DNA of 64,000 nucleotides from Candidatus Staskawiczbacteria bacterium. Its GTDB lineage: Bacteria > Patescibacteriota > Minisyncoccia > Minisyncoccales > Staskawiczbacteraceae. Position 1 is the stretch's first letter, and each line of letters starts with the position of its first letter. The translations under genes and the position numbers were made by a program. This document shows positions 3,811 to 45,333 of this stretch, piece by piece. Under the pieces are notes generated by a model that was not told where the DNA came from, did not search any database, and saw only the letters and a program-made list of their open reading frames with translations. The stretch lies in NCBI GenBank assembly GCA_041661545.1, contig JBAZUH010000001.1:467877-531876 (forward strand), read 5' to 3'.

Positions 3811-4548
3811 ATGAACTCAAAAAAAACTATCGTCTCGTTTATAATTTTTGTTGCTGTAATAATAGCAGGCGTTTTTGTATTTCAATCATATAAAGAAAAC
3901 AAGATTGAAAATATGTCTGGGTTGCTTAAAAAAATAACTATTGAAGACAAAAAAATAGAAGACAACACAAAGCCTTTTAAAATAAACGTTGTTTACCCCC
4001 AAATACCTGACGCAGAGGAATTTAATCAAATAGCAAGAGACCTTGTTAATAAAGAAATAGATAATTTTAAAAATAATTCTTTAGAAAACGATTCTTCTGT
4101 TGCAGAAACAGATCCAGAAAACTATGCTAGTTATCCCAGAGAATATGAGTTAAATATTTCTTATGAAAAAGGAGATGATTTAGACAACAATATTATTAGT
4201 ATAGTTTTTAACATTTATAGCTTTGAAGGTGGCGCCCATGGAGCTAGCTATTTTATACCGCTAAATTATAATTTAAAAACAAAAAGTAAAATTGCACTAG
4301 GCGATATATTCAAAAATCAGCCAAATTATGTGCAAAAAATATCTGAATTTTGCATTAAAGATTTAACAAGTCAAATAACTTCTAAATTGGGCAATACCGA
4401 GGGCACATGGATAGAACAAGGTGCTGGCCTAGAAGAAGAAAATTTTGCCGTATTTTTAATAAACAAAAAAAATATCGTTTTTTACTTTCCTCAATATCAG
4501 GTAGCTTTTGGCGCCGCCGGCGACTTCCGCGTCTCAATGCCCCGCTGA
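3811..4548 (+). CDS. DUF3298/DUF4163-like (RsiV/PdaC C-terminal-like) membrane-anchored protein
   Basis: N-terminal TM helix, FEGGAHGASY motif and C-terminal QVAFGAAGDF, as in DUF3298-type proteins. Confidence 0.65.
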   Translation: MNSKKTIVSFIIFVAVIIAGVFVFQSYKENKIENMSGLLKKITIEDKKIEDNTKPFKINVVYPQIPDAEEFNQIARDLVNKEIDNFKNNSLENDSSVAETDPENYASYPREYELNISYEKGDDLDNNIISIVFNIYSFEGGAHGASYFIPLNYNLKTKSKIALGDIFKNQPNYVQKISEFCIKDLTSQITSKLGNTEGTWIEQGAGLEEENFAVFLINKKNIVFYFPQYQVAFGAAGDFRVSMPR

Positions 4549-4609
4549 TCCCACACCTGTGCACCGGAGCACGGGTGCGCGCCGATATTATCTAAAATTT
4601 AAAAATACA

Positions 4610-4647
4610 AAAAAACCGTGCTGAGTTTATCGAAGCACGGTTTTTTG
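4610..4647. terminator. Bidirectional intrinsic terminator between convergent genes
   Basis: aaaaaaCCGTGCTgagtttatcgaAGCACGGtttttt. Confidence 0.8.
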
Positions 4648-5010
4648 TTACCTAGAAACGAATATTTTCTTTTTACCAAACTCTAAAAGTATGAGTGATA
4701 TAATACCTAAAATTATGCCAACAATTTTTGAAGCTGTAACTTCTTCCCCAAAAATCAGAACTCCCACAATTGTTAAAATTGTAACATTAAACATTACCAA
4801 AATAATTGAAGCCACTGGAATATCTTCGCCTTCATAACTTTTAATTAAAATTGCCATAGCAATTATATAAAAAATCATTGTTATAAAGTATAAAAATAAG
4901 CTTCCGCTGACTCTAACCCATTCTGTTGCAAATATATCTCCTAAAGTTAAAATTGCTCCTCCTATAAGAAGCATAATTAACGGGGATAATTTTTTCTTAT
5001 TTTTTTTCAT
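4648..5010 (-). CDS. Small 4-TM membrane protein, SMR/DMT-like (paired with the next gene)
   Basis: About 120 aa and highly hydrophobic. The start is placed at MKKNKKKLSPL (cat at 5008..5010), which avoids overlap with the upstream paralog. Confidence 0.55.
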   Translation of the reverse strand: MKKNKKKLSPLIMLLIGGAILTLGDIFATEWVRVSGSLFLYFITMIFYIIAMAILIKSYEGEDIPVASIILVMFNVTILTIVGVLIFGEEVTASKIVGIILGIISLILLEFGKKKIFVSR

Positions 5011-5380: not shown

Positions 5381-7591
5381 ATGATTACGTTATCAACAAA
5401 AATCGAAGAAATTCCAAAAGTTGGAACAGCTTACGCAAAAAAATTAAAAAAATTCGGCATAAAAACTGTGCAGGATTTGCTTTTTTATTTTCCTGCAAGA
5501 TATGACGATTTTTCAGAAATAATTTCTATTAAAAATGCCAAACAAAGATTAGGCGATACTGTTTGTGTGCAAGGAAGAATTACAAATATAGAAAGCACTC
5601 ATACTTTTAAAAAGTTTATGAACTTAACCGAGGTAACCATACAAGACGACACCGCAGAAATTAATGTTGTTTGGTTTAACCAGCCATATTTAGCAAAATC
5701 ACTCAAAGAAGATGATTTTATTTGTGTAGCTGGAAAAATAAGTTTGGGCAAAGATGGTATTTATTTTAACAGCCCAGCATATGAACGAATAAACCAAACA
5801 GCTGAAAAAGAAGAACTTACTCATACCGGTAGAATTGTGCCAGTTTATGCAGAAACAAGAGGTGTTACCTCGCGCTGGCTAAGATATGTAATAAAACCTT
5901 TGCTTTATCAATTTTGTGACCAAATACAAGAATCTTTACCAAAAGAAATCATAAAAAAATATAAATTTTTGCCTATACAAGAAGCTGTTTGGCAGTTACA
6001 CTTTCCCGATTCTTTTGAACATGCAGATGCTGCCAAAGCTAGATTTTCTTTTGAAGAATTATTTTTAATTCAACTTAATGTTTTAAAAGAAAAAATAAAA
6101 CTAATGGTAAAAAAGGCCCACGCCTGCCCAATGGATAATGACTTATTAAAAAAATTTACCGATTCTTTACCATTTCAGCTTACAGATTCACAAAAAAAAT
6201 GTGCCTATGCTATTTTAAAAGATTTAGAAAAAACAGTTCCAATGTCGCGGTTGCTAGAAGGAGATGTTGGAAGCGGTAAAACAGTTGTAGCAACAATGGC
6301 TATATTAAATGTGGTAAAAAGTAAACCAAACCTGCCTGCCGGCAGGCAGGTAGCTTTTATGGCACCAACAGAAATTTTAGCAAAACAACATTTTAAATCT
6401 GTTTCTGAAATGCTAAAACCATTTAATATTACCGTGGGCATGCTAACCGGCAAAGATGCTAGAATTTTTAGAGATGGCGAGGTTTTTGAAGTTTCTAAAA
6501 AAAGTTTTAACGGCGATTTAGAAAACGGGCAAATAGACGTGGCTATTGGCACACACTCTTTAATTCAAAAAAACATAAATTTTAAAGATTTAGCCTTAGT
6601 AGTTTTAGATGAACAACATCGTTTTGGCGTAGAACAAAGGGATCACTTAATAAAAAATAAAAAACTCGTGCCCCATTTATTATCTATGACTGCAACTCCA
6701 ATTCCTAGAACCCTGGCTTTAACTGTTTATGGCGATTTAGATCTATCTTTAATTGATGAAATGCCAGCTAACAGAAAAAAAATAAAAACAGTTATTGTTG
6801 AGCCTTCTCAAAGACAGGAAGCTTACAATTTTATTAAAAAAGAAGTAAGTGAGGGCAAAGGAGTTTTTGTTATTTTCCCTAAAATAGAAAGCGCTGCTTC
6901 AAAATTAGCTGAAACAATAAAAGAAAAAGGCGGAGTTATTGGTTCGGCAGGGTTTAATGTGCAAAACTATTCCCCGCTTTCTTTATCATCACTGGCTATT
7001 AACGAGGTTAAGGCTTTGAAAGAAGAGTATGAAAAATTATCAAAAGAAGTTTTTCCAGATTTACGAATAACTATGCTTCATGGAAAAATGAAATCCCCAG
7101 AAAAAGAAAGAATTATGTTAGATTTTAAGAGAGGCGAAATTGATATTTTACTTTCTACTTCGGTAGTAGAAGTTGGAGTTGATGTTCCAAGAGCTACTAT
7201 TATGATGATTGAAGGGGCTGAACGTTTTGGACTTAGCCAACTTCATCAGTTTCGCGGACGAGTTGGCCGAAGCGATATGCAATCTTATTGTTTTTTATTT
7301 ACCACAGACCCTAGTATGCTAAACAGAAAAAGATTAAAAGCCTTAGTAGAATCAAATAATGGCTTTGAATTAGCTGAAAAAGATTTGGAAATAAGGGGCC
7401 CAGGAAGTCTTTATGGCACACAGCAATGGGGCATTCCCGATATGGCTATGCAGGGTTTAAGTAATATATTTTTAGTTGAAAAAACACGAGCTGCTGCCAA
7501 AGAACTTTTAGAAAAAGACCCTGCGCTAAAAGATTACCCCGAGCTAAAAGAAAGATTAAAAGAGTTTGAAAAAAGAATACATTTTGAATAA
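5381..7591 (+). CDS. recG: ATP-dependent DNA helicase RecG
   Basis: GDVGSGKT (Walker A), DEQHRFG, MTATPIPRT, QLHQFRGRVGR, and an N-terminal wedge/OB region. It carries an in-frame palindrome insertion (LPAGRQV). Confidence 0.95.
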   Translation: MITLSTKIEEIPKVGTAYAKKLKKFGIKTVQDLLFYFPARYDDFSEIISIKNAKQRLGDTVCVQGRITNIESTHTFKKFMNLTEVTIQDDTAEINVVWFNQPYLAKSLKEDDFICVAGKISLGKDGIYFNSPAYERINQTAEKEELTHTGRIVPVYAETRGVTSRWLRYVIKPLLYQFCDQIQESLPKEIIKKYKFLPIQEAVWQLHFPDSFEHADAAKARFSFEELFLIQLNVLKEKIKLMVKKAHACPMDNDLLKKFTDSLPFQLTDSQKKCAYAILKDLEKTVPMSRLLEGDVGSGKTVVATMAILNVVKSKPNLPAGRQVAFMAPTEILAKQHFKSVSEMLKPFNITVGMLTGKDARIFRDGEVFEVSKKSFNGDLENGQIDVAIGTHSLIQKNINFKDLALVVLDEQHRFGVEQRDHLIKNKKLVPHLLSMTATPIPRTLALTVYGDLDLSLIDEMPANRKKIKTVIVEPSQRQEAYNFIKKEVSEGKGVFVIFPKIESAASKLAETIKEKGGVIGSAGFNVQNYSPLSLSSLAINEVKALKEEYEKLSKEVFPDLRITMLHGKMKSPEKERIMLDFKRGEIDILLSTSVVEVGVDVPRATIMMIEGAERFGLSQLHQFRGRVGRSDMQSYCFLFTTDPSMLNRKRLKALVESNNGFELAEKDLEIRGPGSLYGTQQWGIPDMAMQGLSNIFLVEKTRAAAKELLEKDPALKDYPELKERLKEFEKRIHFE

Positions 7592-42816: not shown

Positions 42817-43275
42817 ATGACAACATTATTAGAAAAATTTAATAAAGACCAAGAGAAAAAAGTTCCAGATTTAAAACCTGGCGATACAATTAAAGTACAC
42901 CAAAAAATTAAAGATGGCGACAAAGAAAGAATCCAAATATTTGAAGGAATAATTATTGCTAAAAAACATGGCAAAGGAATTTCTGGCACAATAACTGTTA
43001 GAAAAGTTGTTGATGGTGTTGGAGTTGAAAGAATTTTTCCAATTAACTCCCCTGCTATAGAAAAAATAGAAGTTGTAAGACATGGAAAAGTAAGAAGATC
43101 AAAACTTTATTACTTAAGAACAGCCAAAGGTAAAAAAGCAAAATTAAAGAGAAAAGATTTTGCAGCAGCAATTGCTCCAGAGCCCGAACAAAATTCTTTA
43201 GATGCTGAAACCAACGAAGAGCCAGCTGTTTCTGAAAAAACTGAAACAACCGAAACAAAAGAAGTAGCAGAATAG
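42817..43275 (+). CDS. rplS: 50S ribosomal protein L19 with an acidic C-terminal extension
   Basis: [31 protein letters not shown]...[10 protein letters not shown]. Confidence 0.95.
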
Positions 43276-43341
43276 AATATTGCTTTTACAAACAATATGG
43301 CGGACTTTGTCTCGCCGTAGGTTCGCTACGGCGAACCGTAG

Positions 43342-43422
43342 GCGGACGTGGCGAAATGGCATACGCACTACCTTGAGGTGGTAGCGCCGCAAGGCATGAG
43401 GGTTCGACTCCCTCCGTCCGCA
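43342..43422 (+). tRNA. tRNA-Leu(GAG)
   Basis: Acceptor GCGGACG/CGTCCGC, anticodon stem-loop CTACC-TTGAGGT-GGTAG, long variable arm. Confidence 0.9.
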
Positions 43423-43447
43423 CAAGGACATATTGCCATGCCTTTTA

Positions 43448-43520
43448 GGACGATTAGCTCAGTTGGTAGAGCATCTCATTTACACTGAGAGGGTCACAGG
43501 TTCGAGTCCTGTATCGTCCA
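43448..43520 (+). tRNA. tRNA-Val(UAC)
   Basis: Acceptor GGACGAT/ATCGTCC, anticodon loop TTTACAC. Confidence 0.9.
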
Positions 43521-43555
43521 CACTTCCTGCATCAGTGCAGGCACAAATAAAAAGC

Positions 43556-43630
43556 GCCGGGGTAGCTCAGTGGTAGAGCACTGCTCTGAAAAAGCAGTGG
43601 TCGAAGGTCCGATTCCTTTCCCCGGCACCA
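43556..43630 (+). tRNA. tRNA-Phe(GAA), CCA encoded
   Basis: Acceptor GCCGGGG/CCCCGGC, anticodon loop CTGAAAA, T-loop TCCGATT. Confidence 0.9.
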
Positions 43631-43689
43631 TGTGATTATCGCCTTCGCAAATTCTGGCGGGCTTTGCCCGCCGAAGCTAGCAAGCGTAG

Positions 43690-43761
43690 GCGGGTGTCGT
43701 ATAGTGGCTATTATGTAACCTTGCCAAGGTTAAGACGGCAGTTCGATTCTGCTCACCCGCT
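43690..43761 (+). tRNA. tRNA-Gly(GCC)
   Basis: Acceptor GCGGGTG/CACCCGC, anticodon stem-loop TAACC-TTGCCAA-GGTTA. Confidence 0.9.
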
Positions 43762-43762
43762 C

Positions 43763-43925
43763 AAAGAAAAAAATCCAGAGTATTTCTGGTTTTTTTTATT
43801 TGATTGAGCAGAATCGAACTGCAGGATGGGGTCGGGAAGGAGACATCCTTCCCGTATAGGAAATTATTCAAAACCGAGGGTTTTGAAAGAGCGAAGCGAC
43901 AAGTTCCATTTCTGCTCACCCGCTC
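43763..43925 (-). mobile_element. Miniature insertion bounded by a 16-nt direct repeat of the tRNA-Gly(GCC) 3' end; conserved structured core, copy A
   Basis: TTCTGCTCACCCGCTC occurs at 43747..43762 and 43910..43925. The interior holds a terminator hairpin, an inverted T-arm fragment (43805..43824), hairpin CGGGAAGGAgacaTCCTTCCCG (43833..43854) and hairpin TTCAAAACCgagGGTTTTGAA (43867..43887). Confidence 0.6.
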
Positions 43926-44007
43926 CAATAAAAACCGCCTAATTTTAGGCGGTTTTTTGTTGTTTTTGTCCACTTGACAGCTGACCATATTTTATGTTGT
44001 AACTATT

Positions 44008-44041
44008 GACACAGAGCCCTTTCTATGCTAATATATACCCA
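44008..44041 (+). promoter_or_regulatory. Putative promoter of the 3D-domain gene
   Basis: TTGACA, a 17-nt spacer, then TAATAT. An SD-like AAGGGAG lies upstream of the ATG at 44067. Confidence 0.55.
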
Positions 44042-44066
44042 TACTTCCGAAAGGGAGTTTTTAATT

Positions 44067-44561
44067 ATGAATACATTAAAACACGTAAAAAATAGCCTTG
44101 CTTTAGTGGTCAAAACCCGCTTAGCTGGCTCTATATTTGCAAGCATTGTAATTGCTATTTGCGCTGTAGGCATAATCTTGCCTCAAGCCATATATGCTGA
44201 CCCTGCCAATACAGCAAGCGCTTCTTATGTGGCAAAAAATAGTAATGAGATAAAATCAAATGCTATTAAAACTATCAAGGTTAAGGTTACTGCTTATTCA
44301 AGCACTGCAGACCAAACTGATGATACTCCCTTTATAACCGCCTCAGGTAAAAGGGTAAAAGATGGTATAATAGCAAACAACTTATTACCTTTTGGAACAA
44401 AAATTAAAATTCCAAAATTATATGGTGATAAAATATTTACCGTGCAAGATAGAATGAATAAAAAGAAAGGCAACTTCCATATAGATATATGGATGCCAAC
44501 TAGAGGATTGGCACTTAACTTTGGATCCAAAACTGCTGAGATATTAGTTCTAGCAGATTAA
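44067..44561 (+). CDS. 3D-domain (MltA/RlpA-like fold) secreted cell-wall protein
   Basis: VTAYSSTADQTDDTPFITASGKRVKDGIIANNLLPFGTKIKIP...FTVQDRMNKKKGNFHIDIWM. The start is set at MNTLKHV because the upstream ATG at 44025 lies inside the promoter. Confidence 0.8.
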   Translation: MNTLKHVKNSLALVVKTRLAGSIFASIVIAICAVGIILPQAIYADPANTASASYVAKNSNEIKSNAIKTIKVKVTAYSSTADQTDDTPFITASGKRVKDGIIANNLLPFGTKIKIPKLYGDKIFTVQDRMNKKKGNFHIDIWMPTRGLALNFGSKTAEILVLAD

Positions 44562-44608
44562 GCAATAAACAAAAAACACCCCGACTTGCGTCGTGGGTGT
44601 TTTTTTAT

Positions 44609-44776
44609 GTGCCCGAGGCGGGACCGCTACGCTAGAACCCGTCGCTCTGCTCCTTCAAAACCCTCGGTTTTGAATAATTTCCTACACGGGAGGAAATGCT
44701 TTCCTCCCGACCCCTCCTTGGGGTTCGACTCCCGCACATTTAAAAAGAACACTATAAATAGTGTTCTTTTTTAATG
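44609..44776 (+). mobile_element. Miniature insertion bounded by a 15-nt direct repeat of the tRNA-Leu(UAA) 3' end; conserved structured core, copy B
   Basis: GTGCCCGAGGCGGGA occurs at 44609..44623 and 44777..44791. Hairpins TTCAAAACCctcGGTTTTGAA (44654..44674) and CGGGAGGAAAtgcTTTCCTCCCG (44687..44709), a T-arm fragment at 44720..44737 and a terminator hairpin at 44741..44773. Confidence 0.6.
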
Positions 44777-44860
44777 GTGCCCGAGGCGGGAGTCGAACCC
44801 ACATGAACTTTCGCTCAAAGGATTTTAAGTCCTTCGTGTATACCATTCCACCACTCGGGC
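44775..44860 (-). tRNA. tRNA-Leu(UAA), CCA encoded
   Basis: Acceptor GCCCGAG/CTCGGGC, anticodon stem-loop AAGGA-CTTAAAA-TCCTT, long variable arm. Confidence 0.9.
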
Positions 44861-44877
44861 ATAAATTTTCAATTGTG

Positions 44878-44949
44878 AGGCCGAGGCGGGAATTGAACCC
44901 ACGTATAAGGGATTTGCAGTCCCTTGCATTACCACTTTGCTACTCGGCC
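44878..44949 (-). tRNA. tRNA-Cys(GCA)
   Basis: Acceptor GGCCGAG/CTCGGCC, anticodon stem-loop AGGGA-CTGCAAA-TCCCT. Confidence 0.9.
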
Positions 44950-44973
44950 ATTAAATATAATTTACCAGTTTTT

Positions 44974-45333
44974 TTATTCTTTTTCAATATCTAAATACTT
45001 ACTATCTTTTGCAAGCAGCTCTTCAATTCTGGCGGCACTAGCAATTTCTTTTTCTTTTATAAATCTTATTTTAGGAATTGGTCGCATTTTCAAAATTCTG
45101 TTTATTTCATATTGGATATCATAAACTGATTTTTGTAATGCATTTAAAATTCCGTCTAATTTTTCTTCAGGAAAAACAGAAATATATGCTTTAGCATCTA
45201 TCATATTTGAAGAAGTTTCAACCCTAGTTAAAGTAACTAAAATATCTGGCGCAAAAGTAAAGTCCCTGCGGATAATTTTCCCCACTTCATGTTCTAACAA
45301 TGAATTTACTTTTTCAACTCTATTCGTTGACAT
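44974..45333 (-). CDS. rbfA: Ribosome-binding factor A
   Basis: MSTNRVEKVNSLLEHEVGKIIRRD...LTRVETSSNMIDAKAYISV. The start is set at cat 45331..45333. Confidence 0.85.
   Translation of the reverse strand: MSTNRVEKVNSLLEHEVGKIIRRDFTFAPDILVTLTRVETSSNMIDAKAYISVFPEEKLDGILNALQKSVYDIQYEINRILKMRPIPKIRFIKEKEIASAARIEELLAKDSKYLDIEKE

Follow-up and report, generated by a model that had tools for sequence, protein, structure and literature searches.

A family of short structured elements with target-derived ends at tRNA and protein gene ends in the candidate phyla radiation

Islands and prophages that integrate at tRNA genes use tyrosine-integrase attachment (att) sites in the T-loop or at the 3' end of the tRNA gene, and phage 21 and e14 use the protein gene icd; they sit at a gene 3' end, are bounded by direct repeats of its terminal segment and leave the gene intact. 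The 64,000-nucleotide stretch analysed here (the window; Candidatus Staskawiczbacteria bacterium, GenBank assembly GCA_041661545.1, contig JBAZUH010000001.1, positions 467,877 to 531,876 of the forward strand) holds two inverted copies, A and B, of a non-coding element that shares these features, one beside tRNA-Gly(GCC) and the other beside tRNA-Leu(TAA). In contrast to the islands, a copy of this element measures only ~110-170 nt, has no integrase and is found at dozens of unrelated targets, gene 5' ends among them. It differs further in the variable length of its repeats, in an extra inverted copy of the target and in a conserved structured core of ~70 nt.

A second likeness is to the eukaryotic short and long interspersed elements (SINEs and LINEs) that move by target-primed reverse transcription and to the retro-mobility of bacterial group II introns. 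These share with the element a non-autonomous habit, a structured, RNA-like core, target duplications of variable length, microhomology at the junctions, serial insertion and siting at terminators and gene ends; class C group II introns insert behind terminator hairpins. The variable duplications and junction microhomology of SINE-like elements are both present here. However, the element has no A-tail, Pol III boxes or intron ribozyme domains (no Rfam intron match), its duplications reach 87 nt and its inverted target copy is constant.

Bacterial MITEs (small transposable elements that end in inverted repeats) and the REP/BIME, Correia/NEMIS, RUP and Rickettsia RPE families are likewise short, non-coding, multi-copy, intergenic and foldable. 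MITEs, however, carry their own terminal inverted repeats and make short duplications of fixed length, whereas here the copies share no terminal inverted repeats, the inverted repeat is made from the target and is specific to the site, and the duplications span 15-87 nt. The interior, moreover, is conserved across numerous lineages, under different names, of the candidate phyla radiation (CPR, or Patescibacteria). The footprint also recalls quasipalindrome template-switch and fork-stalling rearrangements, in which a hairpin, often a terminator, is extended by an inverted copy and followed by a direct duplication as the nascent strand copies itself and re-engages upstream. Those events, unlike the element, insert no conserved foreign sequence and do not recur at hundreds of sites.

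We rate the element as real, widespread and undescribed, with its mechanism partly resolved. On balance, we favor the reading that copies A and B are non-coding, non-autonomous, structured insertion elements that spread by copy-and-paste, through primed synthesis with template switches.

Two copies of one structured element in the window

Each copy is bounded by a direct repeat of the 3' end of its own tRNA: the 16-nt TTCTGCTCACCCGCTC at 43747 and 43910 for copy A (family D1) and the 15-nt GTGCCCGAGGCGGGA at 44609 and 44777 for copy B (family D2). An inverted copy of the T-arm lies beside each tRNA, beyond a terminator hairpin (I2, 33 nt at 79%, and I6, 15 nt at 100%). The cores form an inverted repeat of 57 nt at 89% (I1) and 36 nt more (I3); a stretch of 31 nt is identical in A and B and occurs at these two sites only in the window, with none expected from shuffled sequence. 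Both copies fold more stably than their shuffles (z = -4.2 and -4.5). The original prediction, made from the sequence of the window, had described these direct repeats, the inverted T-arm copies and the shared core, with a first hairpin identical in both copies and a second that differs by compensatory changes, and the repeat and folding analyses located every one of these features. We define the core strand as the one that reads TTCAAAACCnnnGGTTTTGAATAATTTCC; by this convention copy A extends over 43763-43925 on the minus strand and copy B over 44609-44776 on the plus strand.

A covariance model, R1, built from 37 copies finds just these two copies in the 64 kb. The only Rfam 15 matches that cmscan (E <= 10) scored above the gathering threshold in 43200-45100 were the six tRNAs; over the elements themselves there were sub-threshold matches to hairpin-type, microRNA-like families, none of them credible on the cores. 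ARAGORN called no gene in 43763-43925 or 44609-44774, and the core thus matches no Rfam family, tRNA or tmRNA. Two small, mechanically called open reading frames that run through the copies, of 75 aa (43761-43988, minus strand) and 62 aa (44586-44774, plus strand), were rejected as coding sequences. They share the peptide SKPSVLNNFL because the core DNA is identical, which creates a risk that a conserved small protein is miscalled.

Relatives provide the corresponding empty sites. Metagenome contigs were scanned for the predicted empty tRNA-Gly site and two matched, L118 and L119. The order Leu(GAG, partial)-Val-Phe-Gly is kept in L119, and in L118 the neighbourhood is complete, with tRNA-Cys and tRNA-Leu(TAA) as well as a homologue of the 44067-44561 gene. 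In both, the sequence AAAAACCgCC...GGcGGTTTTT directly follows tRNA-Gly; in the window this terminator stands on the far side of copy A (43929-43958). Behind tRNA-Leu(TAA), L118 has a single terminator and then the convergent gene. R1 detects no copy at either locus, and the window has an extra 163-168 nt at the two sites (alignments A4 and A5). Since these syntenic sites, at both tRNAs, are empty, A and B are insertions of ~165 nt. The tRNA-proximal spacer of copy A (43763-43804) has no counterpart in the aligned empty sites; either it arrived with the insertion, or it derives by divergence from a duplicate of the original terminator.

Another Staskawiczbacteria metagenome-assembled genome (MAG), L035, has the same gene order, a copy at tRNA-Gly and an additional copy at tRNA-Val (6876-7063), where tRNA-Val(TAC) and tRNA-Phe of the window are separated by nothing but a 34-nt spacer (43521-43556). 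The cores of the two L035 copies are identical, which points to recent spread or gene conversion inside that genome.

Structure of the core

Read on the core strand, a copy has the order T-left, 5' segment, P1, P2, J, P3, a single A, Y', T', spacer and T-right. T-left, 15 to 87 nt in length, copies the target. The 5' segment is specific to subfamilies (ATCTCAC or TAGAACCnGTCG, with or without a 10-nt insert), and the insert of copy B marks a subfamily that includes L041, L052, L054, L062 and L079. P1 varies in length above a base GTC...TCC, P2 is formed by TTCAAAACC and GGTTTTGAA, J is a conserved 12-nt linker, UAAUUUCCUACA, and P3 has a 5' strand rich in purines and is followed by the single A and the pyrimidine tail Y'. 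T' repeats, in inverted orientation, 10-20 nt of the target beside the insertion point, which it crosses by 2-6 nt; in copy A it crosses the junction position inside the T-loop. The spacer between T' and T-right is 0-4 nt in young copies and contains a terminator in older copies at tRNAs, and T-right continues into the intact gene.

Among 103 distinct copies, 97% of cells are paired, and both sides have changed in five P2 pairs and eight P3 pairs. None of 500 shuffles matched the observed values and slid registers fell far below them; the seed set shows the covariation as well. P2 seemed invariant because the search pattern had fixed it, and compensatory P2 variants occur in the diverged copies L024, L060, L040 and L010. 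The covariation first read from two copies therefore persists in larger alignments.

The tail Y' pairs by Watson-Crick rules with nothing. It is the parallel complement of the purine strand of P3, with G opposite C and A opposite U or at times A, in 93.9% of cells; shuffles give 76%, and sliding the partner by one column gives 73-76%. A wider count gives 74%, against a shuffle mean of 44% and a maximum of 54% (2000 shuffles). In copy B, for example, GGGAGGAA goes with CCCTCCTT; other such pairs are GGGAAAAA with CCCTTTTT and GAAAACTT with CTTTCAAG. Because the tail covaries in parallel with the purine strand, this pattern suggests that Y' lies in the major groove of P3 and forms a triple helix. 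A third strand that covaries in parallel register with a purine strand is the hallmark shared with known RNA triple helices (ENE/MALAT1-type, telomerase pseudoknot, and the pseudoknots of the SAM-II and preQ1-II riboswitches), to which the core is likened here by covariation alone. In contrast to those, the third strand is a 3' tail placed after a hairpin and a single A, the implied triples are mostly C.G-C, with U.A-U and some A.A-U, and the core has no A-rich tract, ligand pocket, sequence similarity or Rfam hit. Nor did Rfam give a match to hammerhead, twister, pistol, hatchet or HDV self-cleaving ribozymes, which the circular permutation described below had brought into consideration.

Some copies are larger. 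Three or four extra hairpins stand within the P3 loop in L014 (2115-2400, minus strand) and L025 (2394-2700, plus strand), and an extra hairpin or 55-nt insert separates P2 from the linker in the second copy of L010 (2469-2535, minus strand) and in L098 (205-345); the addition of hairpin modules at loops is the usual way in which structured RNAs vary. Truncated copies proposed by nhmmer were rejected, as the partial hits were mostly the palindromic P2 read on the other strand, and one of them, L098 302-347, proved to belong to a complete copy interrupted by an insertion.

Twelve copies are circularly permuted, with the order Y, A, Y', P2, J, R (P3 3' strand, A, tail, P2, linker, P3 5' strand). 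This form begins with ACGATCACAC, in many cases a few bases past a -10 box (in L112, TTGACA-17-TACAAT), and is followed by a conserved AT-rich AAATTT hairpin. Downstream lie metK, corA, PBP, a C-terminal protease, secreted proteins, a GIY-YIG gene or tRNAs. The permuted form may be the expressed one, and it looks like a small RNA or a leader. A riboswitch, which metK and corA as neighbours had suggested, was ruled out because the downstream genes are unrelated.

Family, targets and target-derived ends

An exact 22-nt core pattern, searched against bacterial genomes at one genome per species, matched at least 117 loci, and R1 added a few more diverged copies in the loci collected. Among the matches listed, JAUYJZ01 has eight copies, MHOR01 seven and JBAZTS01 five, and nearly all matches are in genomes named as Patescibacteria/CPR or in MAGs with no lineage name. 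The named groups include Staskawicz-, Berkel-, Wolfe-, Wildermuth-, Lipton-, Yanofsky-, Nealson-, Colwell- and Adlerbacteria, Paceibacterota and genomes labelled Saccharibacteria. The sole matches outside named CPR among those listed, L033 (a Gastranaerophilales MAG, 4.7-kb contig) and L011 (a candidate division WS2 MAG, 8.6-kb contig), are probably mis-binned CPR DNA and not true occurrences, since each contig is short. The names on the records of the matching loci point to a family confined to Patescibacteria/CPR. Viral contigs scanned with the core pattern gave no hits. A literature search for the core sequence returned no paper, searches on CPR with structured RNA, repeats or MITEs returned nothing relevant, and the element is not described in a paper on Patescibacteria tRNA group I introns, in the TIGR-Tas paper (PMC12045711) or in a survey of prokaryote MITEs.

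About half of the evaluable copies (56 of 113) have an opposite-strand tRNA 40-160 nt downstream, in convergent orientation, and these tRNAs represent 26 anticodons together. The repeat begins at the tRNA 3' end and, without exception, the junction within the tRNA falls in the T-loop or T-stem; across all these anticodons the termini copy the adjacent tRNA, as proposed from the two copies in the window. Three further copies stand before a tRNA 5' end. Protein genes are targets too, both at the 3' end of opposite-strand genes (for example ribosomal protein S9, hit at one and the same codon in four genomes, as well as L11, a PolX-like gene, an ABC substrate-binding protein and a membrane protein of 529 aa) and at the 5' end of same-strand genes (dnaX, pth and L16). 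Copies at protein genes have the same layout: gene-end copy, core, junction-spanning inverted target copy, intact gene. No common motif is visible among more than 40 different target sequences. The original prediction had raised two possibilities, a miniature integrative element able to retarget different tRNAs and a tRNA-linked structured RNA with an antisense end. Insertion and retargeting are supported, with targets beyond tRNAs, and the element may also act as an RNA on its neighbour. A classical integrase mechanism is improbable: the targets share no sequence, and the 2.5 kb surveyed on either side of the copies holds no linked recombinase gene.

Without exception the intact gene is on the T' (inner) side and the junction always inside the gene (orientation counts 87 versus 14). 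The target-derived ends, a direct copy of the gene end outside and the inverted copy inside, thus leave a complete gene on the inner side. Across the junction T' agrees with the intact target, and where T-left and T-right differ (L053) it follows T-right. In the young copies L081, L062 and L032, 0-4 nt separate the inverted copy from the right repeat, and the 5' junction shows 0-3 nt of microhomology or overlap. Where the duplicated segment contains a terminator, T' simply lengthens that hairpin.

Several loci record repeated insertion. At the S9 gene end of L060 (3280-3500) two different subfamilies stand in series, and L113 (7220-7790) has three copies between convergent tRNA-Gly and tRNA-Lys, two of them serial at tRNA-Lys with the original terminator duplicated around them. 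In L010 (500-760), L092 (200-420) and L108 (170-350) an outer unit has no 5' core part and retains tail, inverted copy, terminator and repeat.

Features of the window and the positions of permuted copies are collected in Table 1. The gene between A and B, which the original prediction had labelled a 3D-domain gene, gave no significant Pfam hit; the only NCBIfam match of its protein is a weak one to the cell-wall-binding EntC C-terminus (E = 0.03), and the label is not confirmed. The copies do flank this gene, as had been pointed out, but the arrangement is a coincidence of two convergent tRNA clusters: in L118 the homologue sits between the same tRNAs with no element, and the gene is therefore a bystander.

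Two side observations concern the surroundings. L118 has an extra small gene (MIREPGEPKQ..., ~125 aa; 4380-4740, minus strand) between the tRNA-Gly terminator and the homologue of 44067-44561, which is not in the window. The window itself (1-64000) is low in G+C, encodes FtsH, an RluD-like protein, L19, RbfA and a short IF-2, and has 19 tRNA genes in several clusters, with the element at only two. Its gene content and base composition agree with a genome of the Patescibacteria near Staskawiczbacteria; exact-protein look-ups of the 44067-44561 product (from two starts), RbfA and L19 returned no record.

Table 1. Features of copies A and B and their surroundings (window coordinates), and positions of circularly permuted copies (locus coordinates)
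Feature	Position	Strand	Basis or remark
tRNA-Gly(GCC), target of copy A	43690-43762	+	ARAGORN; Rfam tRNA, 57.9 bits
Copy A, gene-side direct repeat (last 16 nt of tRNA-Gly)	43747-43762		family D1
Copy A, tRNA-proximal spacer with bidirectional terminator hairpin (43775-43789)	43763-43804	.	two-strand terminator scan
Copy A, T', inverted copy of tRNA-Gly T-arm, CTGCAGTTCGATTCTGCTCA on minus strand	43805-43824	-	I2; base-by-base comparison
Copy A, core	43823-43891	-	R1, 88.1 bits, E = 4e-18; folds
Copy A, Y'	~43824-43831
Copy A, P3	43833-43854
Copy A, J	43855-43866
Copy A, P2	43867-43887
Copy A, 5' region: short P1 GTCGCTTCGCTC (minus strand), degenerate T-loop ATGGAACTT	43888-43909	-
Copy A, outer direct repeat (T-left), second tRNA-Gly 3' end	43910-43925	+	family D1
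Original bidirectional terminator of tRNA-Gly	43929-43958	.	orthologous to single terminator in L118 and L119
Secreted-protein gene between the copies	44067-44561	+	own promoter 44006-44034; outside the element
Original bidirectional terminator between 44067-44561 gene and tRNA-Leu(TAA)	44570-44607	.	positional orthologue in L118
Copy B, outer direct repeat (T-left), antisense to tRNA-Leu(TAA) 3' end	44609-44623	+	family D2
Copy B, 5' region: degenerate T-loop, 10-nt insert CCGCTACGCTAGAACCC, then short P1 GTCGCTCTGCTCC	44624-44653	+
Copy B, core	44650-44719	+	R1, 90.9 bits, E = 9e-19
Copy B, P2	44654-44674
Copy B, J	44675-44686
Copy B, P3	44687-44709
Copy B, single A	44710
Copy B, Y'	44711-44719
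Copy B, T', inverted copy of tRNA-Leu T-arm, GGGGTTCGACTCCCGC	44720-44735	+	I6, 15 nt at 100%
Copy B, tRNA-proximal terminator hairpin	44742-44773	.	I5; missing from empty site
tRNA-Leu(TAA), target of copy B	44775-44860	-	gene-side direct repeat 44777-44791
Permuted copy, L057	414-468
Permuted copy, L065	4775-4833
Permuted copy, L105	1730-1784
Permuted copy, L114	6438-6497
Permuted copy, L082	1601-1672
Permuted copies, L056	5737-5796 and 5607-5646
Permuted copy, L020	2555-2624
Permuted copy, L034	5748-5815
Permuted copy, L112	230-288
Permuted copy, L025	5812-5869

Proposed insertion by primed synthesis and alternative readings

From the anatomy of the junctions we infer an order of events, a template and an enzyme for the insertion. 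A DNA 3' end just outside the gene boundary would fold back and copy the gene end, yielding T'. Synthesis would then switch to a single-stranded template of the element, either RNA or single-stranded DNA, and the nascent strand would finally re-engage the target inside the gene, yielding the direct repeat. The enzyme would be supplied in trans and could be a reverse transcriptase. Identical cores occur at different targets, and T-left and T' must therefore normally be made from the new target. On the simplest reading, insertion resembles target-primed reverse transcription or snap-back or template-jumping synthesis, and does not resemble cut-and-paste transposition or site-specific recombination. 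The spread of repeat lengths, the gap of only 0-4 nt before the right repeat in young copies, the junction microhomology and the serial insertions all count for synthesis by copy-and-paste. Models of the IS200/IS605 type, the hAT or V(D)J hairpin type, the XerCD/CTX-like type and the simple staggered-cut type were rejected, as they do not produce the order repeat-core-inverted copy-repeat with the gene on the inner side.

A more specific and quite tentative version is that a CPR-specific system writes a triple-helix RNA, or its single-stranded DNA form, at gene boundaries by means of a polymerase of the host or a partner, with part of the target copied into both ends during the same event and the permuted, promoter-linked copies acting as expressed masters. 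If true, this would be a retargeting, "self-programming" insertion mechanism for which no equivalent has been described.

A number of observations weigh against insertion by primed synthesis. The genes within 2.5 kb on either side of 119 copies are housekeeping genes only, with no mobilising enzyme or recombinase family enriched and no reverse transcriptase. Filled and empty sites fit insertion and precise loss alike. The tRNA-proximal terminators of the window are unlike the distal ones, and a simple duplication would need fast divergence. In L008 (850-1080) and L071 (3600-3780) the outer repeat matches another version of tRNA-Asp or tRNA-Leu than the adjacent one, and in L008 so does the inverted copy. 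These two cases suggest transfer between genomes or isoacceptors with the repeat partly carried by the element, such that part of T-left would be templated by the donor. The outer units that lack a 5' core were counted for synthesis, yet their fit is untidy. Upkeep by compensatory change of a closing stem between outer repeat and inverted copy is not supported (16 compensated versus 9 broken double changes), and the intact structure of copies at orthologous sites is equally compatible with a host function.

The strand of the template is a further difficulty, as the evidence from wobble pairs, loops and promoters is mixed. P3 has 19 G.U against 10 A.C on the core strand, and the -10 boxes of permuted copies precede them on that strand. 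However, about two thirds of the copies are antisense to the local operon, and a promoter was looked for on copy A's own strand and none was found. The P1 base GTC...TCC, conserved in standard copies (in the window 43888-43900, minus strand, and 44641-44653, plus strand) and often repeated as GCTCGC...GCTCGC, gives U.C and C.U mismatches on the core strand and tandem G.A pairs, a common RNA motif, only on the complement.

The alternative that survives best is that the element is a structured RNA module useful to the host, which might for example regulate or stabilise the neighbouring gene or serve as a signal for its processing, and that mobility explains only its arrival; we regard this as possible but rather unlikely. 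On this reading the 5' arm is antisense to the terminal 15-25 nt of the gene and the 3' arm mimics that stretch, and both arms would vie with the real target for pairing, as in a toehold or attenuator. Conservation of the core and covariation of its helices in many lineages speak for such an RNA, and copies at orthologous tRNA-Gln sites in five genomes show compensatory changes in P1. At tRNAs the outer repeat is nearly always a perfect match to the acceptor/T-stem strand and the inverted copy keeps a proper T-arm; the permuted form, directly past -10 boxes, stands at the transcript starts of metK, corA, PBP, protease and tRNA genes, and at dnaX, pth and L16 the element is placed in the 5' leader, where the inverted copy could pair with the first codons. 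However, the element has opposite senses relative to its neighbour at 3' and 5' ends, which one function cannot explain, and the neighbours are functionally unrelated. Relatives manage with no element at the same tRNAs, in the window a mere 2 of 19 tRNAs have one, and the outer repeats at protein genes have decayed.

Should the copies instead be miniature integrative elements mobilised in trans by a tyrosine or serine recombinase, their repeats would be attL and attR, with a crossover in the T-loop and a replacement 3' end for the gene. Direct repeats that extend from the T-loop as far as the 3' end of the tRNA and restore the gene are att-like, the empty sites are precise, and the outer repeats of L008 and L071 look imported from another tRNA version. 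We nevertheless hold this to be improbable, since one core occurs at different targets, the more than 40 target sequences lack a shared motif where a few specific att sequences would be expected, and repeat length varies between 15 and 87 nt. Within the 2.5 kb surveyed on either side of the 119 copies there is no linked recombinase gene, the inverted target copy has no role in classical att sites, and a double-stranded circle of ~150 bp is hard to form.

Guide-directed insertion, in which the two target-matching arms would guide a nuclease or recombinase much as IS110 bridge RNAs or TIGR-Tas tandem spacers do, is improbable as well. The arms match opposite strands, one being complementary to the target's sense strand and the other to its antisense strand, such that they bracket the junction, which always lies inside the conserved gene. 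Compared with the description of the TIGR family (PMC12045711) and with IS110, however, the arms are 10-25 nt rather than 4-12 nt, and we find no arrays, no box C/D-like motifs and no associated protein gene near the copies. IS110 and TIGR systems make no long target duplications, and the rewriting of the arms needed at each new target is left unexplained by a guide model. Finally, simple local duplication or a decayed tRNA or tmRNA, which the tRNA-like ends bring to mind, is refuted by a core that matches none of these, by termini alone being T-arm- or acceptor-like and copying the neighbour, and by at least 117 unrelated loci that include protein gene ends with no tRNA-like part.

Much of bacterial diversity belongs to the CPR/Patescibacteria, whose genomes are very small and in which repeats and mobile elements are considered scarce. 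Here, a core of ~70 nt has kept almost every base in many CPR lineages and, among the matches listed, reaches up to eight or more copies in genomes of ~1 Mb, at the ends of tRNA and essential genes. For annotation, the duplicated gene ends yield pseudo-tRNA 3' ends and false short open reading frames. The element is also a marker for strain-level variation in CPR populations, and its core may be a natural triple helix with an abundance of C.G-C triples. The element may also lead to a new polymerase or reverse-transcriptase activity, which can be searched for by co-occurrence. It would be a new class of mobile DNA with unusual protection of its targets, a new widespread structured RNA, or both.

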